Origin: an uncultured Alphaproteobacteria bacterium
GTDB taxonomy: Bacteria > Pseudomonadota > Alphaproteobacteria > MPNO01 > UBA2964
DNA length: 64,000 nt
NCBI GenBank assembly: GCA_951812775.1
Contig: OX638326.1
Span: 3,823,180 to 3,887,179 of the forward strand
Direction: 5' to 3'
The translations under genes and the position numbers were made by a program. Under the pieces are notes generated by a model that did no database searches, was not told the DNA's origin, and saw nothing but the letters and a program-made list of their open reading frames with translations. Position 1 is the stretch's first letter. Every line of letters begins with the position of its first letter. Below are positions 2,451-20,779 of the stretch, piece after piece.

Positions 2451-3805
2451 CGGCCAATGTTATCTTTGTCGATGATGAGAAGCACTTGCGGACGGCTTGT
2501 AGCCAGGCGTTGGAACTCGCTGGGTTCGAAGTGAACAGCTATGAATCTGTCGATGGCGTGTTGGATGAAATTGATCCCGCGTGGCCTGGCATACTCGTCA
2601 CCGATATTCGGATGGCGGGGACCGATGGGTTGCAGCTTATGGCTGGCGCCCTGGAAATTGACCCTGATCTGCCCGTCGTATTGATCACCGGGCACGGTGA
2701 TGTTCCTATGGCCGTCAAAGCCATGCGCGACGGTGTCTATGACTTTATTGAAAAGCCGTTTGCCTCCGAAGTTCTGGTCGATGCCGTGCGGCGTGGTCTG
2801 GATAAAAGAAACTTGGTTCTTGAAAATCGGCAATTACGAGAAGCTCTTACCAAGGGGACGCGACTCGAAAACAGGCTCGTCGGACAATCGCTTGGAGCGA
2901 TAAAACTGCGCGAGAGCATTACGCAATTTGCGGCCGTGGATGCCGATGTCCTGATCACCGGTGAAACGGGTACCGGGAAAGAGCAGGTTGCTCAGGCATT
3001 GCATGAGTTGAGTCCCCGTGCGGAGCAGCGCTTTGTTCCTGTGAATTGTGGCGCTCTGCCGGAGACCATGATCGAAAGCGAATTATTCGGGCATGAGAAG
3101 GGGGCCTTTACGGGGGCGGGTCAGACACGGATCGGCAAGTTTGAATATGCCGACGGTGGCACAGTTTATCTCGATGAAATTGAAAGCATGCCTTTGGAAC
3201 TGCAGGTTCGACTGCTCCGAGTTTTGGAGGAACGCAAAATTGTGCATTTGGGGTCCAATACGGAAATCCCGTTTAACGTACGCATTATCGCTTCCAGCAA
3301 AGGCGACCTTCGTGATGCTGTAAGTGAGGGTAGTTTTCGCGATGACCTATATTACCGTCTCAACGTCTTGACGGTATCCATTCCGCCTCTTCGTGATCGT
3401 CGGGATGATATCGCCATGTTGGTGACGCACTTTATACACCAAGAAGGTATCCAGTTTGACCGAGCTATCGATGAGATACCGTTGCCTGATATGCAGCCGT
3501 TGATGTCGTATGATTGGCCCGGCAATGTCAGGGAGTTACGGAATTGTGTTCGGCGATATGTTCTGGGACAAGCAATCGAACTGGATAGGCCAGAACGCGG
3601 CGATGACTCTATTGAGTTGAGCGGAGAACCACTCTCGATACAACTGGCAGCTTTTGAAAAAAAGATTTTGCAGGAAACGCTGCAAAAGAATGGTGGCCGG
3701 TTAAAGTCAACTTACAAAGAACTTGGTGTTTCCAGAAAGACGCTATACGACAAGCTCAAGAAGTATCGTCTTGGGAATCCTGACAGAGGAAGTGAATTGG
3801 ATTAG
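2447..3805 (+). CDS. dctD: sigma-54-dependent response regulator DctD (REC + AAA+ sigma54 activator + Fis-type HTH)
   Basis: 452 aa; REC domain N-term, GETGTGKE Walker A, GAFTGA motif, C-terminal HTH; start overlaps dctB stop. Confidence 0.8.
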   Translation: MTANVIFVDDEKHLRTACSQALELAGFEVNSYESVDGVLDEIDPAWPGILVTDIRMAGTDGLQLMAGALEIDPDLPVVLITGHGDVPMAVKAMRDGVYDFIEKPFASEVLVDAVRRGLDKRNLVLENRQLREALTKGTRLENRLVGQSLGAIKLRESITQFAAVDADVLITGETGTGKEQVAQALHELSPRAEQRFVPVNCGALPETMIESELFGHEKGAFTGAGQTRIGKFEYADGGTVYLDEIESMPLELQVRLLRVLEERKIVHLGSNTEIPFNVRIIASSKGDLRDAVSEGSFRDDLYYRLNVLTVSIPPLRDRRDDIAMLVTHFIHQEGIQFDRAIDEIPLPDMQPLMSYDWPGNVRELRNCVRRYVLGQAIELDRPERGDDSIELSGEPLSIQLAAFEKKILQETLQKNGGRLKSTYKELGVSRKTLYDKLKKYRLGNPDRGSELD

Positions 3806-4413
3806 GCGGGGTTAGGTTGTCGCAGCTCGTGGGGGATCAGAGTTGGTCCGTCATTGAGCTTAACTTCACCGGTTTCCTGATTGTAGGTTCTTTGTTTGAA
3901 GGTTCCGGCTTTTTGTGCCCGTACAATGAAGGCCATACTGTTCTCGGGTCCACCATGTTCCTGATGGATGTTCCCGGGCGGGACTGAGTCGACGCCGCCT
4001 GGACCGATATTATGACATCCGACTTGCCTGAGCTGGGCTGGGCCAGTGTCGCGTGGCGCGGTATCAGTTCTTTCATATCTGTTCATGGTTTCATGACCTT
4101 CGATGAGGCCATAAAGGGTCCATACGTCGCCATGATCATGAATGCTGGTGACGGAATTGGCCTTCCGCACGGTCGCATTGAAAACGAAGCCGTAATCTGG
4201 GTCTTCATAGAAGAGGAGGTTCTTAACTTTTGGCGCGCCCTCAACCGTGAGTGGCCAGGTCTTAGAGCTTTCTATGAGCTTAGGATCAGCTAACAAGGGT
4301 TCCATCGCCTCTTTGATTTTTGACCAGAGAGTGTCCGGGTCCAGGTTTTGTGCATAGAGTGTACGAATTTGATCGACAAAACGTCGTGCGGCAGGGAGTT
4401 GCGGCTTTTCCAT
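3802..4413 (-). CDS. cupin-fold protein, cysteine dioxygenase / 3-mercaptopropionate dioxygenase-like
   Basis: 203 aa; cupin motif SIHDHGDVWTLYGLIEGHE; tail-to-tail 4-nt overlap with dctD. Confidence 0.45.
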   Translation of the reverse strand: MEKPQLPAARRFVDQIRTLYAQNLDPDTLWSKIKEAMEPLLADPKLIESSKTWPLTVEGAPKVKNLLFYEDPDYGFVFNATVRKANSVTSIHDHGDVWTLYGLIEGHETMNRYERTDTAPRDTGPAQLRQVGCHNIGPGGVDSVPPGNIHQEHGGPENSMAFIVRAQKAGTFKQRTYNQETGEVKLNDGPTLIPHELRQPNPA

Positions 4414-4631
4414 AGCAAGACCTTTCTATGATGCCAGCTATTGTGTCATTGAGGCGTTGCGTTATCCAGTCACCTCGCAATGGCTGATGTGTCATTCGTC
4501 CCACATGTGGAATGCCTGATGGGTAAACTCCTACACATTTGAATTTGACTAGGTGGCTTTGTCCGCAGGCCTCCGCTTTGTAACACTATGAAATTACTTA
4601 ATAAAAATTAACATTCTGCTGTGTATAGGTT

Positions 4632-4646
4632 TGGCATGGATGTTGC
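4632..4646 (+). promoter_or_regulatory. sigma-54 (-24/-12) promoter TGGCAT-N5-TTGC upstream of dctP
   Basis: tggcatggatgttgc, with GG and GC spaced as in the TGGCAC-N5-TTGCW consensus, about 75 nt upstream of the dctP ATG; matches DctD-activated TRAP/dct promoters. Confidence 0.5.
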
Positions 4647-4720
4647 GATGCAAAATCGCCATACCACAACAGGCCGGAAAAGGCCGTTATATGACAATCC
4701 AACAATAGAAAGGTTGAGAA

Positions 4721-5725
4721 ATGAAAAAAATTATTTTGGGGGCCGCAGCTCTAGCTGCCGCTACGAGTTTTTCTGCTGCCGCATATGCTAAATGTGATCC
4801 GGGCGAAATTGTGATCAAGTTCAGTCATGTGACGAACACGGACAAGCATCCAAAGGGTATCGCTGCAACGTTGCTTGAGAAACGTATCAACAAAGAAATG
4901 CAGGGCAAGGCCTGTATGAAGGTATATCCAAACTCAAGCCTTTATAATGACAATAAAGTTCTTGAAGCTTTGCTGCAGGGTGATGTCCAGTTGGCGGCAC
5001 CTTCATTGTCCAAATTCGAGAAGTTCACCAAGAAGTTTCGGATTTTTGATCTTCCGTTCATGTTCCAGGACATCAATGCGGTTGACCGATTTCAGAATTC
5101 CAAGGCTGGTCAAGCCCTTAAGAATTCGATGACGCGTCGTGGTCTTAAGGGGCTCGAATTCTGGCACAACGGCATGAAACAGCTTTCGGCCAGCAAGCCA
5201 CTCATCAATCCTTCCGATGCATCAGGTCTTAAGTTCCGCGTCCAGCCTTCAGATGTGCTGGTGGCCCAGTTCAAAGCGCTCGGTTCAAACCCACAGAAAA
5301 TGGCCTTTAAGGAAGTTTATGGCGCTCTGCAGACTAAGGTCGTTGATGGTCAGGAAAACACCTGGTCGAACATTTATGGCAAGAAGTTCTTCGAAGTTCA
5401 GGACGGCGTAACCGAAACCAATCATGGTATCATTGATTATCTGGTTGTGACCTCAACCGATTGGTTGAAGGGTTTGCCGAAAGATGTTCGCAGTCAATTC
5501 ACGACGATTCTTAAAGAAGTCACAGAACTTCGCAATAAGGAAGCCTACGCTGTGAATCAGGCTAACAAGAAAAAAATTCTCGCCGCTGGCGGTAAGGTTC
5601 GCACCCTGTCCGCAGCTCAACGGGTGGCTTGGGTTAAGGCTCTTCGCCCGGTTTGGAAAAAATTCGAAGGCGATGTTGGTGCAGATATGATTAATGCTGC
5701 TCAGAAGGCCAATGCAGGAAGTTAA
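4721..5725 (+). CDS. dctP: TRAP transporter substrate-binding protein DctP
   Basis: 334 aa; signal peptide MKKIILGAAALAAATSFSAAAYA; DctP-family periplasmic SBP; followed by dctQ and dctM. Confidence 0.85.
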   Translation: MKKIILGAAALAAATSFSAAAYAKCDPGEIVIKFSHVTNTDKHPKGIAATLLEKRINKEMQGKACMKVYPNSSLYNDNKVLEALLQGDVQLAAPSLSKFEKFTKKFRIFDLPFMFQDINAVDRFQNSKAGQALKNSMTRRGLKGLEFWHNGMKQLSASKPLINPSDASGLKFRVQPSDVLVAQFKALGSNPQKMAFKEVYGALQTKVVDGQENTWSNIYGKKFFEVQDGVTETNHGIIDYLVVTSTDWLKGLPKDVRSQFTTILKEVTELRNKEAYAVNQANKKKILAAGGKVRTLSAAQRVAWVKALRPVWKKFEGDVGADMINAAQKANAGS

Positions 5726-5753
5726 GTCGACTCCGGGGTTGTAAGTCGTCTAA

Positions 5754-5785
5754 GGAAATGCGGTCAGCTATAGCTGACCGCATTT
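5754..5785 (+). terminator. stem-loop between dctP and dctQ (possible intercistronic terminator or attenuator)
   Basis: 13-14 bp inverted repeat GAAATGCGGTCAGC-TATA-GCTGACCGCATTTT directly after the dctP stop; T-run is weak. Confidence 0.45.
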
Positions 5786-5836
5786 TCCCTAATAATAAGC
5801 TGCACAAGCGGTAAGGCAGGGGCAGGAAGGTTTCGA

Positions 5837-6472
5837 ATGACGGAAAATACGTCCGCTAGTTCTGGACTGGGCGATCAGCTTGAAGAAAGCCTAATTGCTA
5901 TTTTTCTAGGGCTAATGACCCTGATTACATTTGCAAATGCAGTTGCCCGATATGTCTTCAATGACAATATCTTATGGGCCCTGGAAGCAACGGTATTCTT
6001 GTTTGCATGGATGGTGTTGCTCGGCGCCAGCTACGGCGTGAAGAAATCTCTGCATCTCGGTGTTGATATTGTAATCGCGAAAATGTCGCCGGCAGGTAGA
6101 CGAATTATGGGGTTGTGTGCAGCTGTCGCCTGTCTTGTCTTTGCGCTGCTGCTGCTGAAAGGCGGATGGGACTACTGGTATCCCTTCGCAACCAAGCGGG
6201 CCTTTCTCGAAACCAATGATATTCCCATGCCCGAATTTCTGCAGTTCATCGCAACCTGGATGAATGAGGGCGAAAAATACGAGAAAATTCCACGCTTTAT
6301 CCCATACGCGGTACTGCCAATCGCGATGTCTCTTTTTACCTGGCGCGTTTGTCAGGCCACCTGCCGCATTTGGCGCGGAAAGCAGGAATTGCTTATCGCT
6401 TCACATGAGGCGGAAGAACTTTTGCAGGAAGTGGAAGCAAGCCACGCAGATAACTCGAAGCGAGAGGGCTGA
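5837..6472 (+). CDS. dctQ: TRAP transporter small permease DctQ
   Basis: 211 aa, four predicted TM helices, lies between dctP and dctM. Confidence 0.8.
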   Translation: MTENTSASSGLGDQLEESLIAIFLGLMTLITFANAVARYVFNDNILWALEATVFLFAWMVLLGASYGVKKSLHLGVDIVIAKMSPAGRRIMGLCAAVACLVFALLLLKGGWDYWYPFATKRAFLETNDIPMPEFLQFIATWMNEGEKYEKIPRFIPYAVLPIAMSLFTWRVCQATCRIWRGKQELLIASHEAEELLQEVEASHADNSKREG

Positions 6473-6475
6473 CAC

Positions 6476-7840
6476 ATGGAAGTCGCCATTCTATTCGGGT
6501 TGGTAATTGGTTTGATGGCAATTGGCGTACCGGTTGCGGTCTCTCTAGGGCTGTCGAGCGTTCTGTTCCTAATGATGTTTTCCGATGGGTCGCTCGCGTC
6601 GATCGCACAGACCTTATTCTCCGCCTTTGACGGGCATTACACTTTACTGGCTATCCCGTTTTTCATTCTGGCCTCGACTTTTATGTCGACCGGTGGTGTT
6701 GCCCGCCGGATCATCCGATTTGCGATTGCGCTGGTTGGGCATATGCCTGGTGGTTTGGCCATCGCGTCCGTCGTTGCCTGTATGATGTTTGCAGCCTTGT
6801 CAGGCTCTTCGCCGGCAACGGTGGTGGCTATTGGCTCCATCGTTATCGCGGGAATGCGAGAGGTAGGATACTCAAGAGAATTCGCTGCTGGCGTGATCTG
6901 TAACGCAGGGACGCTTGGTATTTTGATACCGCCATCAATCGTTATGGTCGTCTATGCTGCGGCGACAGATGTCTCAGTAGGCCGCATGTTCCTGGCTGGT
7001 GTGATCCCAGGGCTAATTGCTGGCCTGATGTTGATCATGGGTATTTACGTTACCGCCCGTTTCCGCGGGCTGCCATCTCAGCCTTGGGCGGGATGGGGGG
7101 AGCTATGGGAATCTGCACGCGACGCTTTTTGGGGACTACTCCTCATCTTTATAATTCTGGGCGGAATTTATGGCGGCGTCTTTACGCCGACTGAAGCCGC
7201 AGCCGTTGCGGCGATTTATGCTTTTTTTATCGCCAACTTCGTTTACCGCGACATGGGGCCATTTGTCTCTGCCGGTAAAGGCGGCCTCGCCATCGTTACG
7301 CGCACGCTTTCATCCTTTTGGCACCCCGACACAAAGAAAACGCTTTTTGAAGCTGGCAAGCTAACCATCATGCTGATGTTCATCATTGCGAATGCGCTTA
7401 TTCTCAAGCATGTGTTGACGGAGGAACGAATCCCGCAGGCCATCGCTGGAACGATGCTGGCTGCAGGCTTCGGCCCAATTGTGTTCCTCATCGTCGTCAA
7501 CGTGATGTTGTTGATCGGTGGACAATTTATGGAGCCTTCCGGGCTTTTGATTATTGTTGCGCCGCTGGTATTCCCCATCGCGATCCAGCTGGGCATAGAT
7601 CCTATTCACCTGGGTATCATTATGGTGGTGAATATGGAGATTGGTATGATAACGCCGCCTGTGGGGCTCAATCTGTTTGTGACAGCGGGCGTCGCGCAAA
7701 TGTCGGTTCTTGGTGTTGTGAAAGCGGCATTACCCTGGGTCGGAATCATGTTTGTCTTCTTAATTTTGGTCACTTATGTGCCCTGGATTTCGACTGTCTT
7801 GCCCACCGCGCTTATGGGGCCCGAAATTATTACGAAATAA
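6476..7840 (+). CDS. dctM: TRAP transporter large permease DctM
   Basis: 454 aa polytopic membrane protein, DctM family, directly follows dctQ. Confidence 0.85.
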   Translation: MEVAILFGLVIGLMAIGVPVAVSLGLSSVLFLMMFSDGSLASIAQTLFSAFDGHYTLLAIPFFILASTFMSTGGVARRIIRFAIALVGHMPGGLAIASVVACMMFAALSGSSPATVVAIGSIVIAGMREVGYSREFAAGVICNAGTLGILIPPSIVMVVYAAATDVSVGRMFLAGVIPGLIAGLMLIMGIYVTARFRGLPSQPWAGWGELWESARDAFWGLLLIFIILGGIYGGVFTPTEAAAVAAIYAFFIANFVYRDMGPFVSAGKGGLAIVTRTLSSFWHPDTKKTLFEAGKLTIMLMFIIANALILKHVLTEERIPQAIAGTMLAAGFGPIVFLIVVNVMLLIGGQFMEPSGLLIIVAPLVFPIAIQLGIDPIHLGIIMVVNMEIGMITPPVGLNLFVTAGVAQMSVLGVVKAALPWVGIMFVFLILVTYVPWISTVLPTALMGPEIITK

Positions 7841-7924
7841 ATTGTTGGAAGCTGGGACCGGCGACCACTATGTTTAAAGCTGGGCGTGGCTTGGCGCTGT
7901 AGTACTATCTTTTAAAGGATTGTT

Positions 7925-8490
7925 ATGCGGTTTCTTGATTTCCGGGCGATTGTCGCTCTTACGATTTTTTCTTTGGTTTTGCAATTCTGCTGCCTCTTGG
8001 GGCAAGCGCTCAACGCGTTCCGGCAAAACCCGCTGAATCCAATTCTGGCACACAATCCCCCCGGGTGGGGCAGCGCATTGGCGATTGGACCTTTCAATGT
8101 CAGGCCTTATCGGCGAGCGATACGCGATGCGTCATTTTTCAACAGCTTGTGAATCAAAAAACCCGTCGTCCGGTGTTGCGAGCAACGCTGGCCTCGATCG
8201 GGGAGAAAAAGAACCTTGGACTTATCGTCCTGGCACCGCTGGGCATATTCCTCGGTTCAGGGGTTGCTGGGAAAGTTGATGAAGGTAAGCAGTTCAAATT
8301 TGTATTGCAGCGTTGTACGCAGCAGGGCTGCCAGGCCGCTATTCAGGTTTCAGACAGTCTGAAAGCGGAATTAAAGAAAGGCAAACAGTTGGTCGTTGCC
8401 TTTAAGCCCACAGCCAATGCTCAACCTGTCCAGCTAGCCGTGTCCCTGAAAGGTGTCGCTGCTGGTCTGAAGGCGCTGAAAATCAAGTGA
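7925..8490 (+). pseudogene. Invasion-associated locus B (IalB) family protein; signal peptide (frame 2) and mature domain (frame 1) separated by an apparent frameshift in a C6 homopolymer
   Basis: 7925.. encodes MRFLDFRAIVALTIFSLVLQFCCLLGQA (signal peptide). 8065..8490 (GTG start) encodes IalB-like GDWTFQCQ...KQFKFVLQRCTQQGCQAAIQ. The frames overlap at 8038-8152 around cccccc at 8057-8062. Confidence 0.55.
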
Positions 8491-8579
8491 CCGCCTGATC
8501 GGTGACCAATCACGAGTAAGGTCTCGTTTACCCTAACGTCATACCATTAGTGGCCGAATGATGTTGTTGAGGCCAGACT

Positions 8580-10517
8580 GTGCAGCCGGGACAGGTAAAC
8601 CCATTATCTTTGACTAAAGCCGCAGTGCCAGCCTGGCTGGGCGTCGCTGGCTGGCGGGAAATATTTGGCATAGATCTGCGCACACTTGCCGTTTTTCGGG
8701 TTTTGTTGGGCAGTTTCCTGATTTTGGATCTGATCCTGCGGTCTCGGGACCTAGTGGCCCATTATACGGATTTTGGAATATTCCCAAGAGCCGCCGCCAT
8801 AGATGGATTGGCGGCGGGTGCCTTTTCGTTTCACTTGATGAATGGCAGCGCAGTATTTCAGGCAGCTTTGTTTGTCCTTGCAGGTGCATTCGCTGTTTTG
8901 ATGATCGTTGGATGGCGGACGAGGCTCGCCACAGCTATGTCGTGGGTACTGCTGCTCTCCATGCAGAACCGCAACTGGGAAATTCATTCCGGTGAGGATC
9001 AACTGGTGATGGTTCTGTTGTTCTGGGCGATGTTTTTGCCGTTGGGAGCGCGTTTCTCCGTTGATGCTGCGATGGTTCTCAGGGAATCTGCTAAGTCGAA
9101 TGATTTCGTTTCCCTTGTGACGGCTGCGTTGTTGTTACAGGGCATGTCGATGTATTTCTTTAGCGCCTTGTTAAAATCCGATGCGCGATGGATTCCCGAC
9201 GGGACAGCCATCTATTTTGCTTTGCAGCTCGATTATTTTGCGACGTCACTGGCATTGTGGTTCCGGCAGTTCGAGACACTTCTTCAAGGTCTAACCTATT
9301 ACGTCTGGGCGCTAGAACTTATTGGCCCAATTCTGATTTTCTCACCAATTCTCCAACGGCCATTGCGCGCAATATTGATGACGGCGTTCATCACGATGCA
9401 TTGCGGTTTCTTTCTGTTCCTGGAAATCGGGATTTTTCCGCTCATTTCAATTATTATGAACCTGACCTTTATGCTTGGCTGGATGTGGGATTGGTTTTGC
9501 CGGAAATTACGACCCGATGCCCGCGAAGGGTTGAAAATTTGGTATGACCGGGATTGCGGGTTTTGTCTTAAAACCTGCCGCTTGTTAAAGGTTTTTCTCA
9601 TATTACCCGAGGTGCCGATCAAACCAGCGCAGTCAGATGCGCAGGCTGGTGCATTGTTGGAATCCCACAATAGCTGGGTTGTTTCCCAGGGAAATGTCGC
9701 ATTGATACGGTGGGATGCGATGCGGCATCTATTTATCTGTTCACCGATATTCTGGCCTGTTGCAAGGCTTCTCACTGTAACACCAATACGAAAAATGGGA
9801 GATCGGTTGTATCTATGGATCGCCCGGAATCGTAATACGTTAAGCAATGTGTCTGCGCGTGTTTTACCCTGGGAAAAGATTCAGTTGAGGCCACCGCTCT
9901 GGCAAAACGTATTTGTCGCAGTCTCGTTCTCACTCGTTCTGGCGCAGAATGTTTCAACGCTTCCACAATCCGGGCTTCAAATTCCGGAGCCGCTTTGGCA
10001 GGTGCGACAGTTCCTGGGGCTTTATCAAAACTGGACTATGTTTGCGCCTTATCCCGAACTGGTCAGCCCCTGGCCAGTTATGATGGGGGAGCTCAAAGAT
10101 GGTCATGTGGTGGACGTCTACAATGCGAAAACAGGAATTCCTTCTTTTGAAAAACCTGAGCTGGTTTCCGCTGTGTATAAAAACTACCGCTGGCGAAAAT
10201 ATTTATCCAATCTCGAAGATGCCAGTTATGAAAACAAGCGCAATCATATGGCGTTGAATTATGGACGATATCTTTGTCGTTTATGGAATAGCCAAGCCAT
10301 TGGACTCGACCAGCTATCAACTTTTTCGATTTTTTTAATGTCGAAAGAACGCCACTTCCCGGAAATGCCAAAGTCGTTAAAACACGGCAGATTTGGGATC
10401 ATAACTGCTTTGGATGACCAATCTCGGTTAGGCAGATTTCCGATGTTCAATGAGTCTTGTTGCCGGCAATCTGACGGTTGCCGTCGTCCCTTCCCCTTCT
10501 TTGCTCTCAAGTTTTAG
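8580..10517 (+). CDS. HTTM (vitamin K-dependent gamma-carboxylase-like) domain fused to DCC-family (DUF393) thiol-disulfide oxidoreductase domain
   Basis: 645 aa; N-terminal GIDLRTLAVFRVLLGSFLILD HTTM signature with multiple TM helices; central IWYDRDCGFCLKTCR (YDGDCxFC-like DCC motif); the last ~30 codons overlap the convergent HK gene. Confidence 0.6.
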   Translation: MQPGQVNPLSLTKAAVPAWLGVAGWREIFGIDLRTLAVFRVLLGSFLILDLILRSRDLVAHYTDFGIFPRAAAIDGLAAGAFSFHLMNGSAVFQAALFVLAGAFAVLMIVGWRTRLATAMSWVLLLSMQNRNWEIHSGEDQLVMVLLFWAMFLPLGARFSVDAAMVLRESAKSNDFVSLVTAALLLQGMSMYFFSALLKSDARWIPDGTAIYFALQLDYFATSLALWFRQFETLLQGLTYYVWALELIGPILIFSPILQRPLRAILMTAFITMHCGFFLFLEIGIFPLISIIMNLTFMLGWMWDWFCRKLRPDAREGLKIWYDRDCGFCLKTCRLLKVFLILPEVPIKPAQSDAQAGALLESHNSWVVSQGNVALIRWDAMRHLFICSPIFWPVARLLTVTPIRKMGDRLYLWIARNRNTLSNVSARVLPWEKIQLRPPLWQNVFVAVSFSLVLAQNVSTLPQSGLQIPEPLWQVRQFLGLYQNWTMFAPYPELVSPWPVMMGELKDGHVVDVYNAKTGIPSFEKPELVSAVYKNYRWRKYLSNLEDASYENKRNHMALNYGRYLCRLWNSQAIGLDQLSTFSIFLMSKERHFPEMPKSLKHGRFGIITALDDQSRLGRFPMFNESCCRQSDGCRRPFPFFALKF

Positions 10518-12688
10518 CTCGCCCTGGTGGAGTTCGGTCATTGATTTGACCAATGGCAAACCGAGGCCTGTACCTTCATAGGCCCTCTCCAATCTGGAAT
10601 CCGCCTGACCAAACGGTTGCAGGATGATATTTATCTTGTCGGCGGGTATGCCGATGCTGGTATCACTGACTGAAAAGACAAACCCGTTTGCCCCGATGCG
10701 GGCAATGAGTTTTACACTGCCACCTTCGGGCGTGAATTTAACGGCATTGGATAATAGGTTCAGGAGAACCTGTTTGATCATCCGCTCGTCTGCCATTAAC
10801 TCGGGAAGATCGTCGGGGATATCTGCAGAAAGCGTGACATTGCCCTTTTCGGCTCTTTCGGCAAGCATTTTTAGGGCAGTGGCGACAATACGGCCAAAGC
10901 CAAAGGGAGCTTCATTGGGCTCCAATTCGCCAGCCTCAATCTTCGACATATCGAGGACGTCGTTGATGATTTCAAGAAGATGGGAGCCGCTATTATAGAT
11001 GTCAGTCGAGTATTCGACATATTGAGGAGATCCCACAGGGCCAAAGGCCTCGGTTTTGATAATTTCTGAAAACCCGATAACCGCGTTTAACGGTGTCCGG
11101 AGTTCGTGACTCATATTAGCGAGAAATTCTGTTTTGGCGCGGTTTGCCGACTCCGCTGTTTTACGTGCTTGCTCCTGTACTTCTTCGGCTTTCTTCCGTT
11201 CCGTGATATCGCGAAAAGTGTAGATGAACATTTTTTTGTCGACATGTTCCGAACGTCGTTTATTTGCCTTGATAGATAGTCGAGACGTACTGATCAGCAG
11301 CTCTATAATAAGCTCTCTTCCGTCTTGGGTCGTCAGGGGGAATTCGGCCGGTCCGAACATATTGTCACTTAAGCCACCTCTTTGGTCCTCATCTCCTTCA
11401 GCTTTGTTGTATAGGGCCTCGATTTCTTTCGACCAGGGTAAATAGTTGTGAATGGGCTGATCCATGGCGTCATCTGTTGTGATGCCCAGTATCTGTCCTG
11501 CTGCCGGATTGAAGAGCTCTACTACGCCGTCTTCATTAACTGTTGCGATACCATCAAAACTGTCATCGACCATGCTATTCATCATCGCTCGACGATGCAT
11601 CGCCTCAACACGATGCTCAAAAATCGACAAGGTTTGGGCGTCGATTGATCGCCAAAGGCCAACAACATAGGAGAGACCTGTTACAAGTACCCAGGGAGCA
11701 GTATCGACAATGATCGGCCAAGCTGCCAGTACGCCCAGGGAAATCCCACCGCTTAAGAAAATGACGGACCCTGTACAGAATGCGCCGATTCGCCAAGAGG
11801 TACGATCAAGAAAAGGGCCAAGAAAAATAGCAAGGAATAAAGCGACAATCAGAACCGGCCAAGTGTCCAGTCGATGGATCATCCGGTTCTGGATAATCGT
11901 TTCAAAGGCGAGCGCTTGCAGGACTGGACCAGGAATCACTTTGTGGACGGCAACGTTTAGTGGTCACCAAGTTCCACGGCCGTGGCGCCCACAATAACTC
12001 GTTTTCCGGCTACGGTACTATTGAGAAAATTTCCCTGGATGACGTCCATATAGGACAATCTTGGAAGCGTGTCCGGTTGGATACCCAGATCAATATAAAA
12101 AGAACCATGTGGCATTTCCTTGCTCGTCGCGAGGATGCCAGCCATGCTGGTGATGTTATGGCCTTGAATGTCGTCGGCGGTGAGATAGCGCCTTACGCGG
12201 CCATCCTCCTCTACTCGGATATTAACCGTTGCAAGATGAGCATTCGCGCCGACTGTTGGTACGGGAACGGAATGAAAAACCTTTGTTTCATGACCCTTAG
12301 CGGCATGGAACTGTTTGAAGACGGGCAATAAAACGCGGCCATTAGCGCGGGTAATTGCGTCTCCCAAGGCTTTGTCATCTTCTTCATTGGAATGGGAACT
12401 AAAGTCAATATCGAGGGCAACAGACTTAGCACCGGCGGCGAGGAGGCGGTCTATAATCTGGGCGTGATAGCGCCGCGGCCACGGCCAGATGTTGAGTTCT
12501 TTCAGGCTCCTTGTGTCGATTTCGACAACAACAATTTCCTGGCTGGCTTCCCGCTTCAGGAGCTTGAAAGCGAGATCTGTGAGAGCAAAACCTAAGGACG
12601 ACAAAAACTCGCCGAGATATATTCCCGCGACGGTAAGAAACACCACCAGATGGGGCATTATTCGTCTCAGTGTATTTCGGTCTTTCAA
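10428..12688 (-). pseudogene. CHASE2-sensor / PAS / histidine kinase, split by a 1-nt frameshift between the CHASE2 and TM regions
   Basis: 11957..12688 is a CHASE2 domain (IVVVEIDTRSLKELNIWPWPR...GATAVELGDH*). 10428..11939 continues the CHASE2 C-terminus (IPGPVLQALAFETII), then three TM helices, a PAS domain, HisKA (MSHELRTPLNAV) and HATPase. The frames switch at GGTGACCACTAAACG (~11957-11966). Confidence 0.7.
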
Positions 12689-12849
12689 TGCTGCCTCGAA
12701 TGGCCAAACAGTTTTCTACAAATCCGGCCATAAAGGGTAGTTGGAACAGTTTAAAGAACCGTTCAGGGTTGTCAGAAAAGAAAACGGCCTCCTCGAAAGG
12801 AGACCGTTTCTTTGCAAAGCAATTTCAGGAGGAACTATTTGTTCCCGTT

Positions 12850-12966
12850 TCAGTTACCATTGCCATTTCCGTTACTGTTTCCATTACCGCCGCCGTTACT
12901 GTTTCCGTTGCCGCCGCCATTTCCAATACCGCTATTGTTGGCGCTGTTTCCGTTGCCATTGCCGTA
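12850..12966 (-). repeat. imperfect tandem GGN/AAY coding repeat encoding a Gly-Asn tail (YGNGNGNSANNSGIGNGGGNGNSNGGGNGNSNGNGNGN)
   Basis: visible nucleotide periodicity gttaccattgccatttccgttactgtttcc... at the 3' end of the FecR-domain gene. Confidence 0.6.
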
Positions 12967-13900
12967 GCTAGCTTGGGCAGCAACGGTTGCCGGGATGGAG
13001 AAGCTCTTCGGAACTTTGAAAGCTCTTAGTTTTTTGACGGTGTTTTTTGAAAGTTTCCGGGAATTGCCGCGCCCGGTCGCTTTAGGGGCACCTGCATCAT
13101 TGACGAGGCCGCGCGAAACTTTAGAGATATTGACCCGTTTGGCACCAACCATCTTTTTGATGACAGAGCGTGCTGCTTTGCCACGACCGCCTTGTGGGCT
13201 GTTCTGTGATTGCTTCTCCGCCGCCGGTTTAGCATTGGCGGGGTCAGCTTTAGCTTTGTCCTTGCCCTTTGCTCCTGGCGTCGATTGCTTTTTGAAGCCA
13301 ATCAGCCGCATCTGACCGCCATTCCGGTTGCTGACAGCAGCTGTCTGGCCAGGTCTCACGAGGGCAGTTTGGCCACTCAAAATAGAGCTGACCTGGACGG
13401 CACCCTCGGTAACATGCAAAGCAGCGTTGCGCTGATCAACGGAAACCGTAAAAGTCGTTCCTTTGATAACCGCCGCTAAATAGGGTGTTTTTACCGAGAA
13501 CGGTTTGTCCGGCCTGGTCGTGATTTTGAACAGGATTGATCCCATTTTTTGCGCAATACGGGTTGCCGGTTTTTTGCCCTTCGCCTTACCTGATTTTGGA
13601 ATGTTAAAATGGCTGCTTGGCGCGACATCAAGTGAGTCTCCGGGCTGGACCATAATAACACGTCCTTTTGGACCGGTTTTGACTTCCATACCGGGATGAA
13701 TAGTTTCGCCGCGCTTGAGCACATGCCATGCCTTCCCGTCGTGGCTCTTTTGTGTCCTTAATATCAGTTACCCGCCAGTCGCGTGCGTGCTCTGCTTTAG
13801 CGCTGTTCGTATTGACTAAGAGGGCGCCCATCGCCATGGCACCCCAGATCAGGTAGCCATATCTACTTGAAGTTTTGGCGGTGTTGTTCAAATTTTCCAT
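12850..13900 (-). pseudogene. FecR-domain periplasmic protein with GN-repeat C-terminal tail; signal peptide and FecR domain in different frames (apparent 1-nt frameshift)
   Basis: 13628..13900 encodes signal peptide MENLNNTAKTSSRYGYLIWGAMAMGALLVNTNSAKA. 12850..13722 (GTG start) encodes the FecR domain (KRGETIHPGMEVKTGPKGRVIMVQPGDSLDV...TTFTV). The frames meet at ACACAAAAG (~13748-13756). Confidence 0.6.
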
Positions 13901-14249
13901 TTTTCTGCCCTCCCGGGGCTGGTTGATTAAAAATTGCTACAAAACTGCGATTAACATTGCGGCGATTTTTACCTTTCAAATCTTACGAAAATTTAAAAAG
14001 ATAAATTAAATCAATAACTTAGTAAAATTTTAGAAAAATTTGAGATAATTCTTTGTTAACCTTTTCGTTAATATTATGGTTAACATTCGATGCTGGGTTG
14101 GCTCGGATAACTGTGGGAAGGCGTTAGTTGTCCTGGCTTAAGCACCTGGTTTAGCAGAAGAATTTCGGCGCTTTTTTCCCATGGTCTTCTGAGGTCATGG
14201 TTAATCGACTGTCGTCGGGTATAGGAAACACCAGCAAATTGTTGCGTAA
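13901..14249. promoter_or_regulatory. AT-rich divergent intergenic region between the FecR/CHASE2-HK operon (-) and the TpsB gene (+); repeated TTAACATT / GTTAAC motifs
   Basis: 350 bp with GC far below the window average; TTAACATT at 13951-13958 and 14080-14087, GTTAAC at 14055-14060. Confidence 0.35.
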
Positions 14250-15953
14250 ATGAATCAGTCGACCGGGTCTCAATGGGGCCATAAAAAAAATAAATTATTT
14301 TTTATTGGTGCATTCGTTTGCATAACGTTTTTACTTGGATTTTCGTTTGCGCAGTCTTCTGGCGGGGCCAACGACGCCGGAAAGATTCAGGAACGGCTTG
14401 AACGGCCGGCCGAGAAACTAAGCGAAATCGATTCTATTGCTGCTCCGAAAACAGAGAAAACCGAAACCAGGAAGGAATCCGAGAAATTTCGTCTGATAGG
14501 GGCACAGCTGGTTGGAAACAGCGTTTTTACCTTGGCGCAGCTCGCACCGATTTATGAACCTTACCTCAATCGGGAAATCTCGATTGCCGAGGTCGACAAG
14601 ATCGTAAAGGCGATCACCGAAAAATATCACAAAGATGGATATTTCCTGACGCGCGTCTATGCGCCGCCGCAGGCAGCCGAGTTTGGCATTCTGGAACTCC
14701 GCGTGGTGGAAGGGTTCGTGGAACGCGTTGAATTCAAGGGCGATAAGCCGGGAAGATCGAGCTTGTTCAAGGGTTGGGCGGCTAATATTCAGGCAGAGAA
14801 ACCTCTTAAGCTTGGCACCCTTGAACGAAACCTGCTCCTTATGGCTGATATCCTAGGGATCGGCGTAACCCCGAGCGTCAAATAGATTGACCTGGAAAGA
14901 GGAGCGTATCGTCTTGAAATCGCCGTGACTCACCAGAAAGTGGGCGGTTTCGTGAATTTCGACAATCGTGGTACGACGGCTGTTGGACCTTTACAGGTCT
15001 ATGCAGGTGTAAACCTAAATTCCATTATTGGCCTTCTTGAACGAACCAGGCTGGCTGTCTTCACAATTCCCCAGACACCTGAAGAACTTCGCTACGTAGA
15101 GTTTCAACAGGACCATATTTTGAATGGTGCCGGGACTCAGGCATCGATTTTTGCGTCGCGCAGTATTGTGGATTTGGGAGATGAAGCGCTTTTTACCAAA
15201 GAGAACAGCCACGGAACGCGAATTTCACTGGAAGTCTCTCACCCTCTCATCAGGAGTAGGGATCTCAATCTTTTTGCTTCAATCAAGCTGGATGCCTTCG
15301 AATCCGACAAGAGTGGAGATAATGGCACGTTTGATGACAAGCTCCGGATCTTAAGGCTGAAGTCGCGGTTCAATTCGTCAGATGGTTGGGGCGGTACGAA
15401 CTGGTTGTCAGGTCAGTATAGTCAGGGTTTCGACATATTTGGCGCCTCCGACGAAGAATCCGGATTTGTTTCGAATACCAACGGACGTGCTGACTTTTTG
15501 AAAGTCAGAGCAGATTTTACACGGGTGCAGAAAATCGTTGAACATCTCGATCTGCAATTGTCGAGTGCGGGACAATGGTCACCCCATACATTGTTGTCAT
15601 CAGAAGAATTTACGGTCGGTGGACAGAACTTCGGCCGGGCATTCGATCCGTCAGAAATTAGCGGTAACCTCGGTGTTTCGGGATCTGCTGAACTACAATT
15701 CAACTTACCTGCCGATCTGAAGCCTGTCTTGGATTCGGTGCAGCTTTACGGATTTTATGATGCCGGTGCGGTTTGGGGCGTGGGATATACACGCGCATCG
15801 GTAGTCTCTGCCGGTGGTGGAGTAGGGTTGTCATTACCGTACAATTTTCGGGCGCAGTTTGAGGCTGCGATGCCCCTTACCCGGCAAAGCGATAGTGGTG
15901 AAGCGGAACGCAAGGACCCCCGCCTGTATTTCAGCATAAGCAGTCAGTTCTAA
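14250..15953 (+). pseudogene. TpsB-type (ShlB/FhaC/HecB family) outer-membrane transporter with POTRA domain, interrupted by an in-frame TAG
   Basis: 14250..14885 encodes signal peptide + POTRA (LELRVVEGFVERVEFKGD...LERNLLLMADILGIG). An in-frame TAG sits at 14883-14885. 14925..15953 in the same frame encodes the beta-barrel (GGFVNFDNRGT...RLYFSISSQF, C-terminal aromatic residue). Confidence 0.7.
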
Positions 15954-16074
15954 CGCGGATATTGTTCTCACTGTGGATAACTTCATCCCATCAACGTTTT
16001 ATTTACGATAATTTTTCACCGGAATTTTAGGCCTTTGGTCCACCATTTTGGCAACAAGATTGGCGGAGTAGATC

Positions 16075-16554
16075 ATGAAATTTCTGTCCGGTTTTATTAC
16101 TTTTTGTGCATTGCTCGCTTTTGCACCTGCTGGTGCCATGGCGGCGGAAGAAACTGAAGAACAGCTAAAAGCGCGGAAAAAGGCTGAAGCCGAAGCCAAT
16201 AGTGTCCACGCGCTCTCGGTTTTCAGCTATGTGAATCCGGTTCGAGGCCGCGTTCATACGCGACGGCGCCCGGTTCTCATTACCCTGAATGTCAAAGGAA
16301 TGGACGCGCTCAGCCACTTTTGTCAGCAAAAGCCATTGATTGGCGAGGCCGTCCTAAAAATTATCGGTTGGGGGCCTGCCCCCGATTTGTCCAACAAGAA
16401 GGTACTGGAAATTAAGCGGCAATCGTTACATCAGGAATTTTCTGAGGTTTTGTCGGCGGATTCCTTGAAGAATGTCTCACTGAAATTAGGAAAAACAGTC
16501 GCGGAATTTGGCAAGCAGCTGCAGGGAACATCCAACGCCTGTGGTGGCAAGTAG
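16075..16554 (+). CDS. hypothetical secreted protein (signal peptide; weak FliL-like character)
   Basis: 159 aa; N-terminal MKFLSGFITFCALLAFAPAGAMA signal peptide; no confident family assignment. Confidence 0.4.
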   Translation: MKFLSGFITFCALLAFAPAGAMAAEETEEQLKARKKAEAEANSVHALSVFSYVNPVRGRVHTRRRPVLITLNVKGMDALSHFCQQKPLIGEAVLKIIGWGPAPDLSNKKVLEIKRQSLHQEFSEVLSADSLKNVSLKLGKTVAEFGKQLQGTSNACGGK

Positions 16555-16562
16555 GTTTCTCT

Positions 16563-17967
16563 CTAAAGCCTGATGACGGCCATCTTGTCCTGGGTCAGGT
16601 CGTGCATGGTGTGACCGATTCCGCCGGTGCCATAGCCTGACTGTCGCCGTCCTGCAAACGGCATCCAGTCGACTCGAAAAGCTGTGTGATCATTTATCAT
16701 GACAGCCGTTGCATCCAGAGACCGTATCAGTTTGGTGGCGGTGTCGAGTCGTTGCGTAAATCCAGCTGCCTGAAAAGCAAAGGGTAGGGCGTTGGCACGA
16801 TCAATCGCTTCCTCAATAGTCTCATAGCTATAGACTGCGAGTACGGGGCCAAAAATTTCAGCAGTTGAAAGACGTGTGTCGCTACAAGGGTTCAAAATTA
16901 CTGTAGGTGCAAAGGCAGTTTCACCCAATTTTTCGCTACCACACAGAACATCTCCACCGCTTTCCATGGCCTCAGATACCCATTCAGCCACGCGCGACAC
17001 TTCGCCCGGGCGAATGAGGGGGCCAACCTCGACCTTCTCCTCAATTGCATTTCCCACGACGAGCTTGCTCGCCTGTTCGGCGATAAGTCCGGCGATATCA
17101 TGCGCCATCGATGCTGGTGCAAAGACGCGCTGAACCGATACGCAAACCTGTCCAGCGTGGTAAAATCCACCTTTGACCAAAAGGGGCAGCATTGCGTCGA
17201 TATCTGCGCTTTCATCGATAATAACCGGCGCGGCACCGCCATGTTCTAATGCCGCCCTGGTGCCCGGTGCGAGTTTTGATCGCAGCATCCAGCCAACGCG
17301 GGCTGATCCGATAAAACTGAAAAATGCTACACGCGGGTCTGTAATAAGACGTTCTGCCGTAGGAATGTCACAGGGAAAATACTGGCACCATTCTTCGGGG
17401 AGTCCGGCCTCATATAAGATGTTTACAAAGCTTTGCGCCGAAAGCGGTGTGTCATCTGCCGGTTTGATAATGACGGGGCAGCCCGTGGCGATAGCGGGTG
17501 CTACCTGATGGATAATCAGATTTAGTGGGTGATTGAATGCGGAAACCGCGACAACCGGCCCAATCGGTTCCTTGCTGGTAAAGGCCATTCGGCCGGCGCC
17601 GGCGGCGGTGAGATCCATTGGAATTTCGTGTGCCAGTGAGATGACTTAATTCCTTGGCAGCGAGTTCGACACCATCGATCGCACGGTCGACTTCGATCCG
17701 GGCATCAATGAGCGGCTTGCCCCCTTCATTGGCAATTTGAAAAGCAAGCTCGTCAAAACGCTCACGCATGAGGGCGCTGGCTTTGTGCAAAACAGAAATC
17801 CGCTGATGGGCGGGAAGCCAGCTATCGCGATCACGATGTAATCGATCAGCGGCGGTGAGCCACTTATCGGCTTCTTCCCATGTGCCTAAAGAGACTTCAC
17901 CGATGGTCTCGAGAGAGAACGGATTGCAAACAGACAGGATGGCATATTCCTTGGCTTTCGCACGCAC
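16563..17967 (-). pseudogene. aldehyde dehydrogenase (NAD(P)+) family, split by a 1-nt frameshift
   Basis: 17452..17967 encodes the ALDH N-terminus (IANEGGKPLIDARIEVDRAIDGVELAAKELSHLTG). 16563..17618 encodes the rest (HEIPMDLTAAGAGRMAFTSKEPIGPVVAVSAFNHP...catalytic Cys region GQVCVS). The frames switch at ACTGGCACACGAAATT (~17625-17640). Confidence 0.7.
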
Positions 17968-18044
17968 TTGCGTACTCAGTGCCTTAGAATATGGGGCCTA
18001 AATCTGAATCAAAGATAACTTTTCCGCGATACGGCAGAAAAACC

Positions 18045-19852: not shown

Positions 19853-20779
19853 GTGGTTGATCTCCGTAGTTTTGATTTCAATCTTGTTCGGGTGCTGGTC
19901 ATGCTCGAGGAAGAAAGAAGTGTAACCAGCGCGGCAACACGTCTCGGCATAACACAGCCTGCGGTAAGTGCAGCTTTGGCCCGTATGCGCGAAGCATTTG
20001 ATGATCCATTATTCATAAGAACCCAACGGGGCATGACGCCCTCTATCCGGGGTGCAGAGTTGGCGCGCGCGGCAAAGTTGGTTTTGCATGATTTTGAAGA
20101 GCTGTTTGCGACTAAGTCCTTTGATCCGGCAACGGCAGAGGCAAGCCTGACTGTCGGCGCCAACGATTACGGCCAATTCTCTATCGTGGCCCCCTTGCTG
20201 AAGACTATTCGGAACTCAGCCCCTGGCATCAGAATTAATGTACGGCCTTTGGAAGATGATATTTGCGGGCAGCTCGAACGCCAGGAGATAGATGTCGCCA
20301 TTACGTTGCTGTCGAAATCGCCCCAGAACGCCATCGCGACCCGTCTCTTCAGTGAAGATTTTGTCGGAGCCGTTGATAAGGCAAATAATTCTGTTGGCTC
20401 TAGAGTCTCTCTGGATGAGTTCTGTGGGTTTGAGCATGTGCGTGTTTCAGTTGCTAACACGCGGCTCACGGATCCTGTGGATGAGGAGCTCAAGATCAAA
20501 GGTCGTCGTCGCGATATTGTTTTGACGATACCGAACTTTTTTATGATCCCCAGCCTGCTTCGCGGATCCGATCTTTTTAGTGTCGTTCCGCTAAGACTCA
20601 CGCGGTACTTTGATTGGACATTGAAGCCCGTCGCACTGCCGCTTCACCTTCCGGGTTTTACGATGAACCTTATTTGGCACCAGCGAACGGTAGACTCGCC
20701 ACGTCACGTATGGCTGCGAGAACAGCTACAATCTATTTCGCGCTCAATTGAAAAGGGCGCGGCGGATAAAAACCGCTAA
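19853..20779 (+). CDS. LysR-family transcriptional regulator
   Basis: 308 aa; N-terminal wHTH LVRVLVMLEEERSVTSAATRLGITQPAVSAALARMRE; divergent from one UbiD-like gene and followed by a second. Confidence 0.85.
   Translation: MVDLRSFDFNLVRVLVMLEEERSVTSAATRLGITQPAVSAALARMREAFDDPLFIRTQRGMTPSIRGAELARAAKLVLHDFEELFATKSFDPATAEASLTVGANDYGQFSIVAPLLKTIRNSAPGIRINVRPLEDDICGQLERQEIDVAITLLSKSPQNAIATRLFSEDFVGAVDKANNSVGSRVSLDEFCGFEHVRVSVANTRLTDPVDEELKIKGRRRDIVLTIPNFFMIPSLLRGSDLFSVVPLRLTRYFDWTLKPVALPLHLPGFTMNLIWHQRTVDSPRHVWLREQLQSISRSIEKGAADKNR

Follow-up and report, generated by a model that had tools for sequence, protein, structure and literature searches.

CHASE2 is a common sensor domain, and the work on NsrA and CyaK in Sinorhizobium meliloti is the only functional lead on it in the searchable literature. 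In the 2018 work of Garnerone et al. in J Bacteriol, the nsrA gene is reported to adjoin cyaK. The CHASE2 adenylate cyclases CyaK, CyaD1 and CyaD2 of S. meliloti depend on NsrA, an outer-membrane barrel protein, to sense a protein signal from outside (PMC7529298, PMC13001267), and cyaK, which corresponds to SMb20776, is located on the plasmid pSymB (PMC5498481). Here, we describe a set of three adjacent genes in a stretch of 64,000 nucleotides from contig OX638326.1 of an uncultured alphaproteobacterium (assembly GCA_951812775.1), which is referred to below as the window; these genes encode a TpsB-type outer-membrane protein, a secreted FecR-domain protein and a CHASE2 sensor histidine kinase. 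Across related loci, the trio is a conserved unit with interchangeable output, and the window copy, in which each of the three genes is broken, is probably what is left of a sensory input module that has three parts, spans the envelope, is conserved in other genomes and decayed recently in this one.

The arrangement recalls several described systems. As for NsrA and CyaK, an outer-membrane barrel gene is linked to a CHASE2 receptor gene, both in the clade of the window TpsB and in Azospirillum loci, and a FecR-domain gene, smc02177, also lies beside cyaD1 in S. meliloti (PMC5498481). NsrA is, however, a protein of ~1200 amino acids (aa) whose residues 600-1200 form the barrel (PMC7529298), whereas the window TpsB has ~560 aa, and the output in the window is a histidine kinase, unlike that of the NsrA/CyaK pathway. 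The pairing of FecR and CHASE2 genes is itself known: the “BiofilmReg” operon of Burkholderia encodes a response regulator, a LysM/FecR protein, a CHASE2 kinase and a DUF4136 protein, and Pseudomonas aeruginosa carries a pair consisting of a FecR gene and a CHASE2 kinase gene (PMC5192318). As in these bacteria, the gene for a periplasmic FecR-domain protein in the window stands immediately beside that for a kinase of the architecture CHASE2, transmembrane segments, PAS, HisKA and HATPase; in contrast to these operons, which have a response regulator and LysM and no TpsB, the window lacks LysM and an adjacent regulator and has a TpsB in addition. In Magnetospirillum, the gene for MtxA precedes a CHASE2 adenylate cyclase gene (PMC4439547), and the N-terminal part of MtxA (4Z29) matches the profile of the FecR subfamily described here (E = 2.8e-5); where the window FecR-type protein has a disordered Gly/Asn tail, MtxA carries Ig-like domains, and a TpsB has not been reported to accompany it. 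FecR-CHASE2 adjacency has also been described in Campylobacterota (PMC9239204). A preliminary description of the window had noted that FecR-domain proteins commonly neighbour CHASE2 proteins, and the pairing is found in four published reports (PMC5192318, PMC9239204, PMC5498481, PMC4439547). A CHASE2 receptor gene of Caulobacter shares its regulation with adjacent genes annotated as “heme:hemopexin-binding protein” (PMC11724286).

Two further families of systems are relevant to the barrel and to the FecR-type protein. The trio resembles FecA-FecR-FecI and PupB-PupR in its parts, with a barrel in the outer membrane, a FecR-fold domain in the periplasm and a transducer in the inner membrane, through which a signal would be relayed; unlike FecA and PupB, which are TonB-dependent transducers with an STN domain, the window barrel is of the Omp85/TpsB type with POTRA domains. 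The FecR-type protein of the window also differs from FecR and PupR in that it is soluble and secreted and lacks a transmembrane or anti-sigma part, and, unlike FecR-FecI, the trio has no extracytoplasmic function (ECF) sigma factor, the output passing through a separate CHASE2 receptor. With its POTRA_2 and ShlB domains, and with a fold in which two POTRA domains precede a 16-strand barrel, the TpsB belongs to the same transporter family as FhaC, CdiB and ShlB, the partners of FhaB, CdiA and ShlA. In contrast to canonical two-partner secretion (TPS), no gene for a TpsA or TPS-domain protein is found in the window or recurs in 29 related loci, and the TpsB belongs to a separate clade. No description of a TpsB, FecR and CHASE2 trio was found in the searchable literature, outside which subscription-journal papers including the NsrA paper fall; it yielded no paper with both CHASE2 and hemolysin, it combined CHASE2 with POTRA only in a Caulobacter small RNA paper in which the two are unrelated, and a review of two-partner secretion does not mention FecR. 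The specific trio therefore appears to be undescribed in that literature. Both halves of the arrangement, the FecR-CHASE2 pairing and a pathway from a barrel to CHASE2, were already known, and the locus adds a split module of a TpsB-type barrel with a kinase output, which is related in its proposed logic to NsrA/CyaK and to FecA-FecR signalling.

The three genes of the window and their lesions

Lesions were located by three-frame translation and by DNA alignment to an intact orthologous locus, L001 (assembly GCA_040260895.1), which is ~71% identical to the window trio in nucleotide sequence and 77-81% identical in amino acid sequence. The locus consists of the following features:

10428..12688, minus strand: CHASE2 sensor histidine kinase pseudogene; transmembrane segment, periplasmic CHASE2 domain, three transmembrane segments, PAS, HisKA and HATPase_c (Pfam, three-frame translation and alignment with L001)
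12850..13900, minus strand: pseudogene for a secreted FecR-domain protein; signal peptide, FecR beta-domain, linker and Gly/Asn-rich tail
13901..14249, between the divergent genes: AT-rich intergenic spacer; 349 bp, 36-38% GC
14250..15953, plus strand: pseudogene for a TpsB/ShlB-type outer-membrane protein of the Omp85 family; signal peptide and two POTRA domains ahead of a 16-strand barrel

In the kinase gene, Pfam identified CHASE2 on the open reading frame (ORF) 11957-12688(-) (E = 3e-31) and PAS, HisKA (7e-20) and HATPase_c (3e-26), together with transmembrane segments, on ORF 10428-11939(-); the H-box, with the phospho-accepting His of HisKA, reads SHELRTPLN. At the domain level, the architecture of a CHASE2 sensor kinase is complete, with CHASE2 between transmembrane helices followed by PAS, HisKA and HATPase_c. 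The FecR domain (PF04773) was found on ORF 12850-13722(-) (E = 7.2e-10); the segment 13628-13900(-), in another frame, had no Pfam match and encodes the signal peptide, which extends from 13900 down to ~13790. The domain is followed by a Lys/Ala/Pro-rich linker with the conserved motif VNISKVSRGLV and by a disordered Gly/Asn-rich tail. On the plus strand, POTRA_2 (ShlB-type) was detected on ORF 14250-14885(+) (E = 6.4e-19) and the ShlB domain, typical of the barrels of ShlB, FhaC and HecB, on ORF 14925-15953(+) (E = 1.1e-22). These ORFs and domains confirm the layout given in the preliminary description, namely a minus-strand FecR protein with a signal peptide and a Gly-Asn tail, then a kinase of the type described above, and a divergent FhaC/ShlB-type TpsB across an AT-rich region of ~350 bp, which measures 349 bp and contrasts in GC content with its surroundings (~50%). 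That description had further noted the lack of a TpsA-like cargo gene nearby, and indeed the longest ORF of the 64-kb window encodes at most 661 aa, so that the window lacks a gene the size of a TpsA. No response regulator adjoins the kinase gene in the window or recurs in the related loci, and no ECF sigma factor or TonB-dependent receptor was found among the neighbouring window genes scanned with Pfam.

Each of the three genes carries one lesion, as the preliminary description had proposed and as both translation and alignment to L001 show. The kinase gene is split by a 1-nucleotide deletion at ~11960, visible as a single 1-nucleotide gap against L001, which places ORFs 11957-12688 and 10428-11939 in different frames. 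The base is missing in GAC-C(A)A-CTA: L001 reads GAC CAA CTC (GDQLNV) and the window GAC CAC TAA, by which ELGDQLNVAVHK becomes ELGDH followed by a stop. In the FecR gene, the frame changes near 13745-13755 within a divergent stretch beside a run of four A (A4), with a net difference of -5 nucleotides relative to L001. The TpsB gene forms one continuous frame interrupted solely by a TAG at 14883-14885, where the orthologue encodes Glu; by comparison with a model of an orthologue, this stop falls within POTRA2. The rate of nonsynonymous substitution (dN) between the trio genes and L001 is 0.14-0.15 (0.14 for the kinase), and the synonymous rate (dS) is saturated. As each gene has a single lesion in an otherwise well-conserved sequence, inactivation is recent relative to the divergence from L001. 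The module is thus non-functional in this genome and was recently inactivated. Programmed recoding of the TAG codon or of the frameshifts was considered and rejected, because the orthologues carry plain sense codons and continuous frames.

By sequence and predicted fold, the plus-strand gene is a member of the TpsB family. The family profile matches CdiB (3.7e-40) and FhaC (1.9e-17) over nearly the full length, and an AlphaFold2 model of an orthologue (P0001, 76% identical; predicted local distance difference test, pLDDT, 86.7) contains two beta-alpha-alpha-beta-beta POTRA units and 16 long strands, with CdiB (6WIM; template-modelling score 0.68) and FhaC as its best Foldseek matches. In FhaC, the L6 loop carries the motif (V/I)RG(Y/F) and strand 13 the motif (F/G)xDxG. 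The window TpsB contains VGGQNFGRAFDPSEI and YGFYDAGAVW, in which the Arg and an FxDxG-like motif are present and the order in L6 is GRAF, not VRGY; unlike in FhaC, the most conserved stretch of the TpsB subfamily is the loop motif [FY]GR[AG][YF]D. The model of a FecR-type orthologue consists of an all-beta domain, predicted with confidence, and a C-terminal third that is disordered. The domain is closest to the C-terminal signalling domain of PupR (6OVK) and also matches putative anti-sigma factors such as 4M0N, with E ~1e-6 and root-mean-square deviations of 2.5-2.8 Å (2.8 Å over 128 columns for 6OVK). The PupR domain of 6OVK is said to bind the periplasmic signalling domain of an outer-membrane transducer. 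The FecR-type protein therefore has a fold that, in other systems, links a protein of the outer membrane to a signalling protein of the inner membrane. FecR-type homologues share a motif after the domain, V-N/D-I/V-x-x-x-S/T-x-G-L-V, in which G and L are nearly invariant, and have long Gly/Asn/Ser/Ala-rich tails that end in basic residues, the disordered tail comprising ~120 residues. A cleavable signal peptide leads directly into the FecR domain, with neither a cytoplasmic anti-sigma domain nor a transmembrane helix.

A conserved unit with interchangeable output

Intact orthologous loci are found in close relatives. The closest homologues of the window TpsB are 75-77% identical in amino acid sequence and full length (543-562 aa), and their loci keep the same arrangement with intact genes for a kinase of 751 aa, a FecR-domain protein of 372-374 aa and the TpsB. 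The contigs of these relatives read, in order, DCC1-like (+), CHASE2 kinase (-), FecR (-) and TpsB (+), and one contig of the JGI continues as the window does, with the 159-aa gene, an intact gene for an aldehyde dehydrogenase of 458 aa and two UbiD genes. At a greater distance, the locus of a TpsB homologue with 53% identity retains the CHASE2 kinase, FecR and TpsB genes amid unrelated neighbours. Intact copies are also present in cultured organisms, such as Bosea sp. Tri-49, where the set is BLM15_RS31035/31040/31045, and several Azospirillum species, among them A. lipoferum 4B and A. oryzae with a CHASE2 cyclase; on a plasmid of cultured Bosea, a ShlB gene lies next to a FecR gene, which is followed by a gene for a CHASE2 protein annotated as EAL-domain-containing.

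Related loci were collected by a TpsB-alignment scan of one genome per GTDB species, which gave 80 loci, and their six-frame ORFs were searched with hidden Markov models (HMMs) built iteratively from the CHASE2 and FecR sequences of the window; the CHASE2 cyclases of Azospirillum were recognised with a second HMM seed and hhalign (96.6% probability). In a neighbour-joining (NJ) tree of 88 TpsB relatives, the window TpsB falls within a clade of 46 leaves. Wherever at least 3.5 kb of upstream DNA was available in this clade, a CHASE2 gene is present (26/26 loci), accompanied by a divergent FecR gene in 25/26, which establishes the co-localisation of the three families in related Alphaproteobacteria; at the other leaves, the contigs end too early, and on 11 of them a FecR gene remains visible. 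Within the clade, every FecR gene diverges from its TpsB gene. TpsB genes that lie beside TpsA-sized or TPS-domain genes form a separate clade in the same tree.

All-versus-all clustering of the neighbouring ORFs in 29 complete loci recovered CHASE2 in 27, TpsB in 27 and FecR in 26 loci, and the next family in 4. A TpsA partner was looked for beside the intact orthologues and none recurs, FecR and CHASE2 being the only recurrent neighbours; across the 29 loci, this clustering gave no conserved TpsA cargo, response regulator or other fourth family. Since only three families recur, there is no conserved cargo or response regulator, and the DCC1-like and 159-aa genes lie outside the unit. Adjacency of the three families in 29 independent loci with differing flanks exceeds what chance would give. 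By comparison, the output part of the CHASE2 protein varies: 20/26 have PAS-HisKA-HATPase and 6/26 have GGDEF-EAL. These data show that the trio is a conserved unit with interchangeable output, and the constancy of the TpsB/FecR/CHASE2 set together with the varying output identifies it as an input module. The FecR subfamily itself comprises 1,790 clusters at 50% identity (E <= 1e-30). No FecR-TpsB fusion protein was found among 137 profile matches from a set of 5.8 billion proteins, all of which are stand-alone FecR proteins of ~130-365 aa.

A third clade, formed by Azospirillum and its allies (15 loci), has co-directional genes, of which the first encodes a 235-aa protein, the next a CHASE2 adenylate cyclase and the last a TpsB. 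It is exemplified by positions 4971-9587 of locus L007 on the Azospirillum oryzae plasmid NZ_CP054616.1, with 14 similar loci (L064-L081); in L007, a beta-helix protein is encoded ~1 kb downstream of the set of CHASE2 adenylate/guanylate cyclase and TpsB genes. The upstream 235-aa protein was considered as an equivalent of FecR and rejected, as it has no Pfam match and is not FecR-like by hhalign.

Other compositions were observed at single loci or in small groups. In L012, a CHASE2 kinase gene is directly divergent from the TpsB gene, without a FecR gene. A small TpsB subclade, L021 and L023, has two tandem FecR-domain genes upstream (in L023, ORFs 6440-7708 and 7956-9473) and no CHASE2 gene within reach. 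In L061 (6998-11620), a TpsB relative is divergent from a 7TMR-DISM hybrid histidine kinase (HisKA-HATPase-REC-Hpt); according to this single case, TpsB-like barrels may pair with sensors other than CHASE2.

The decay block, the flanking genes and the divergent spacer

The decay is not limited to the three genes on which the preliminary description had placed it: each of them is indeed broken, and two flanking genes are frameshifted as well. The genes on either side of the trio are as follows:

8580..10517, plus strand: DCC1-like gene (membrane and thiol-disulfide oxidoreductase-like); frameshift in a run of seven T (T7) at 10330-10336, ancestral stop at 10415-10417
16075-16554, downstream of TpsB: gene for a 159-aa protein; signal-peptide-like N-terminus, no Pfam match
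16563..17967, minus strand: aldehyde dehydrogenase pseudogene; frameshift within 17452-17618, Pfam Aldedh split over two overlapping ORFs

In the DCC1-like protein, BLASTP similarity to L001 is lost over the last ~45-55 aa, and the +2 frame brings back the conserved C-terminus, which ends in FNVERTPLPGNAKVVKTRQIWDHNCFG and a stop codon. The two overlapping ORFs of the aldehyde dehydrogenase gene cover positions 9-128 and 116-459 of the Aldedh profile, and its orthologue is the intact 458-aa gene of the syntenic JGI contig. Synteny of the DCC1-like gene with the trio is confined to the closest relatives, and this gene does not recur across loci; both the DCC1-like and the aldehyde dehydrogenase genes are part of the local decay and lie outside the conserved module. 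The 159-aa gene, which the preliminary description had given as the next gene and as encoding a secreted protein, is the only one of six consecutive genes across 8580-17967 that looks intact, the other five carrying lesions. Only two further lesions were found among the other ~52 genes of the window, and the clustering has p ~1e-3 by a post hoc hypergeometric estimate with scan correction. The housekeeping genes of the window, purD, xseA, ubiA, ubiD, gshA and tldD/pmbA, are intact. The locus is thus a recently inactivated accessory module within a small decay block, and annotation of its genes as pseudogenes is called for.

A related locus has lost much of the same block. In L010, which derives from the metagenome-assembled genome (MAG) ME_XS_2303_bin_60 (JBMYRG010000028.1), the equivalents of window positions 8509-8921 abut those of 14586-15953. 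Within 8583-10357 of L010, the DCC1-like gene is thus cut off after its 5' part, at the equivalent of 8921, and continues directly into the TpsB gene at its middle, at the equivalent of 14586. This ~5.7-kb deletion takes out the block of the DCC1-like, kinase, FecR and 5' TpsB sequences, with the kinase and FecR genes gone; it may represent an independent loss of the same module or an artefact of the MAG.

The spacer between the FecR and TpsB genes (13901-14249) was aligned with those of L001 and L003. By sliding identity, ~190 nucleotides beside the fecR-like start are 80-88% identical to L001, compared with ~71% for coding DNA. Two direct copies of TGGTTAA, at 14077-14083 and 14198-14204, lie 121 bp apart on one strand; the heptamer occurs three times in the 64-kb window, of which two are inside the spacer, and it is found in 18/43 module spacers, against a maximum of 12 in shuffled sequences. 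The TGGTTAA repeats are a candidate binding site for a regulator. A CtrA box (TTAA-N7-TTAAC) was considered for the GTTAA repeats and rejected, as the spacing was counted as N8. The spacer was scanned for the sigma-70 consensus without a match, and an Rfam scan of positions 8000-18000 returned nothing.

Elsewhere in the window, several genes were recorded. An intact dCache histidine kinase and a sigma-54 response regulator (DctB/DctD-like) are encoded upstream of a tripartite ATP-independent periplasmic (TRAP) transporter (DctPQM) at 540-7840, followed by an IalB-family gene (8065-8490) whose ORF has 141 aa, compared with 187 aa in the orthologue. A LysR-family regulator gene (19853-20779) lies between two UbiD-family genes, which are 86 bp apart on the syntenic JGI contig and hence reflect an insertion or deletion difference between relatives. 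A GAF-HisKA-HATPase-REC hybrid kinase gene at 51865-53506 and an EamA-family transporter gene at 61379-62457 are frameshifted.

A putative trans-envelope relay and alternative explanations

The three intact proteins together probably form a sensor that spans the envelope. Its outer-membrane part would be the TpsB-family protein, in which a 16-strand barrel follows two POTRA domains that face the periplasm; its middle part would be the secreted FecR/PupR-fold protein, with its short conserved motif and long disordered Gly/Asn/Ser-rich tail; and its inner-membrane part would be the receptor with a periplasmic CHASE2 domain and an interchangeable transmitter, which is a histidine kinase here and in relatives an adenylate cyclase or GGDEF-EAL. 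Either the barrel itself or a FecR-type protein that docks on its POTRA domains or passes through it would register a cue at the cell surface or outer membrane. This cue would be relayed via the FecR-type domain to the CHASE2 domain, altering kinase autophosphorylation; the response regulator for the kinase would be encoded elsewhere. We infer that such a relay, from the barrel through the FecR-type adaptor to CHASE2, controls the kinase. Docking of the FecR-type protein on POTRA and its partial export through the barrel are compatible with each other, and export is also the main alternative discussed below. The proposal of the preliminary description that the locus is an uncharacterised envelope-signalling and secretion unit is supported by the comparative pattern, and it needs to be tempered in that FecR-CHASE2 pairs and the NsrA barrel give it some precedent, that a secretion role of the barrel is no more than putative and that the decay extends beyond the trio.

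Several observations weigh against this interpretation. To our knowledge, no function other than partner secretion has been established for TpsB proteins. The FecR-domain gene smc02177 of S. meliloti, beside cyaD1, is dispensable for perceiving the known plant signal (PMC5498481). FecR-CHASE2 pairs without an adjacent TpsB occur in Rhizobium leguminosarum and Sinorhizobium sp. B11 as well as in Burkholderia and Pseudomonas (PMC5192318); therefore, the barrel is not universally needed. When a plasmid collection including pSymB (NC_003078.1) was searched by tblastn with the window and Azospirillum TpsB sequences, no series of matches on S. meliloti pSymB was obtained and at most a few Sinorhizobium records were retrieved, so that homology between TpsB and NsrA, compared by tblastn only, is not established. 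In the same collection, the CHASE2 domain found only Azospirillum, and this domain is therefore too divergent to locate the S. meliloti genes in this way; the FecR domain found rhizobial FecR-CHASE2 pairs, none of them from S. meliloti. Pairwise distances within each of the three families correlate with those in the others (r 0.75-0.83, Mantel p <= 5e-4), which favours a conserved unit, but this statistic ignores species kinship. Finally, the frameshifts of the FecR gene (A4 run) and of the DCC1-like gene (T7 run) could be sequencing errors.

An alternative is non-canonical two-partner secretion, in which the TpsB would export the FecR-domain protein, as its true cargo, through the barrel to the cell surface or into the medium and the CHASE2 protein would be a co-located regulator or an independent sensor. 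Membership of the TpsB family is solid, and secretion is the one role proven for that family; the FecR gene is always divergent from and adjacent to the TpsB gene, the distances of these two families correlate best (r 0.83), and a FecR-type protein with a signal peptide and a disordered Gly/Asn/Ser tail of ~120 residues could pass through the barrel. Pfam, however, finds FecR alone in this protein and no TPS secretion domain, whereas TPS domains do occur beside the TpsB proteins outside the clade. The CHASE2 partner is, moreover, as constant as FecR while the output shifts between kinase, GGDEF-EAL and cyclase, which does not fit a transcriptional regulator dedicated to a secretion operon, and the neighbourhood contains no conserved response regulator. 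Secretion of this kind is unlikely on balance; it would overlap with the sensory relay if the exported FecR-type protein were itself the sensor. Far less probable is a coincidental adjacency, with the TpsB serving a TpsA encoded elsewhere and bearing no relation to the FecR/CHASE2 pair. TpsB proteins can act on unlinked or multiple TpsAs (PMC5422565), and FecR-CHASE2 pairs do exist without a TpsB neighbour, but 25/26 clade loci with sufficient flanking DNA keep the trio while all other neighbours differ, and the clade is distinct from that of the TpsA-linked TpsBs. In Azospirillum, the TpsB gene is co-directional with the CHASE2 cyclase gene and directly follows it, and the three genes decayed together in the window and were deleted together in L010.

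The lesions might instead be errors of sequencing or assembly, in which case the module would be intact and functional in the organism. The positions of two of them, in the T7 homopolymer of the DCC1-like gene and beside the A4 run of the FecR gene, would fit such errors; the source is one contig of 4.15 Mb, the sequencing technology is not known, and the depositor's annotation likewise calls fragments (P0004, 333 aa; P0166, 267 aa). The TpsB lesion, however, is a substitution to TAG and not an indel, and the regions of the kinase and EamA frameshifts contain no homopolymer of at least 4 bases; wholesale sequencing error is therefore unlikely, with the T7 and A4 sites left as possible errors. 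The concentration of lesions in one 9-kb block (5/6 genes), amid intact housekeeping genes, is likewise not the pattern of uniform read error, and the related MAG lost the same block by deletion. Error as the explanation for the lesions is accordingly quite improbable, more so than secretion of the FecR-type protein as a cargo, and the reading of the locus as the decayed remains of a sensory input module is preferred.

The value of the locus lies in the comparative pattern across loci and not in this dead copy. A defined TpsB subclade and a FecR subfamily are tied to CHASE2 receptors with interchangeable outputs, which gives a concrete three-protein complex to consider and suggests that one branch of the two-partner-secretion transporters may either serve a purpose other than secretion or secrete an adaptor. 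More tentatively, the TpsB subclade may be the outer-membrane component of a widespread form of TonB-independent cell-surface signalling, acting via a soluble FecR-fold adaptor with a disordered tail on CHASE2, instead of a group of porters for large exoproteins. If true, this would be a first lead on what stimulates CHASE2 domains, whether their outputs are kinase activity, cyclic di-GMP or cyclic AMP.

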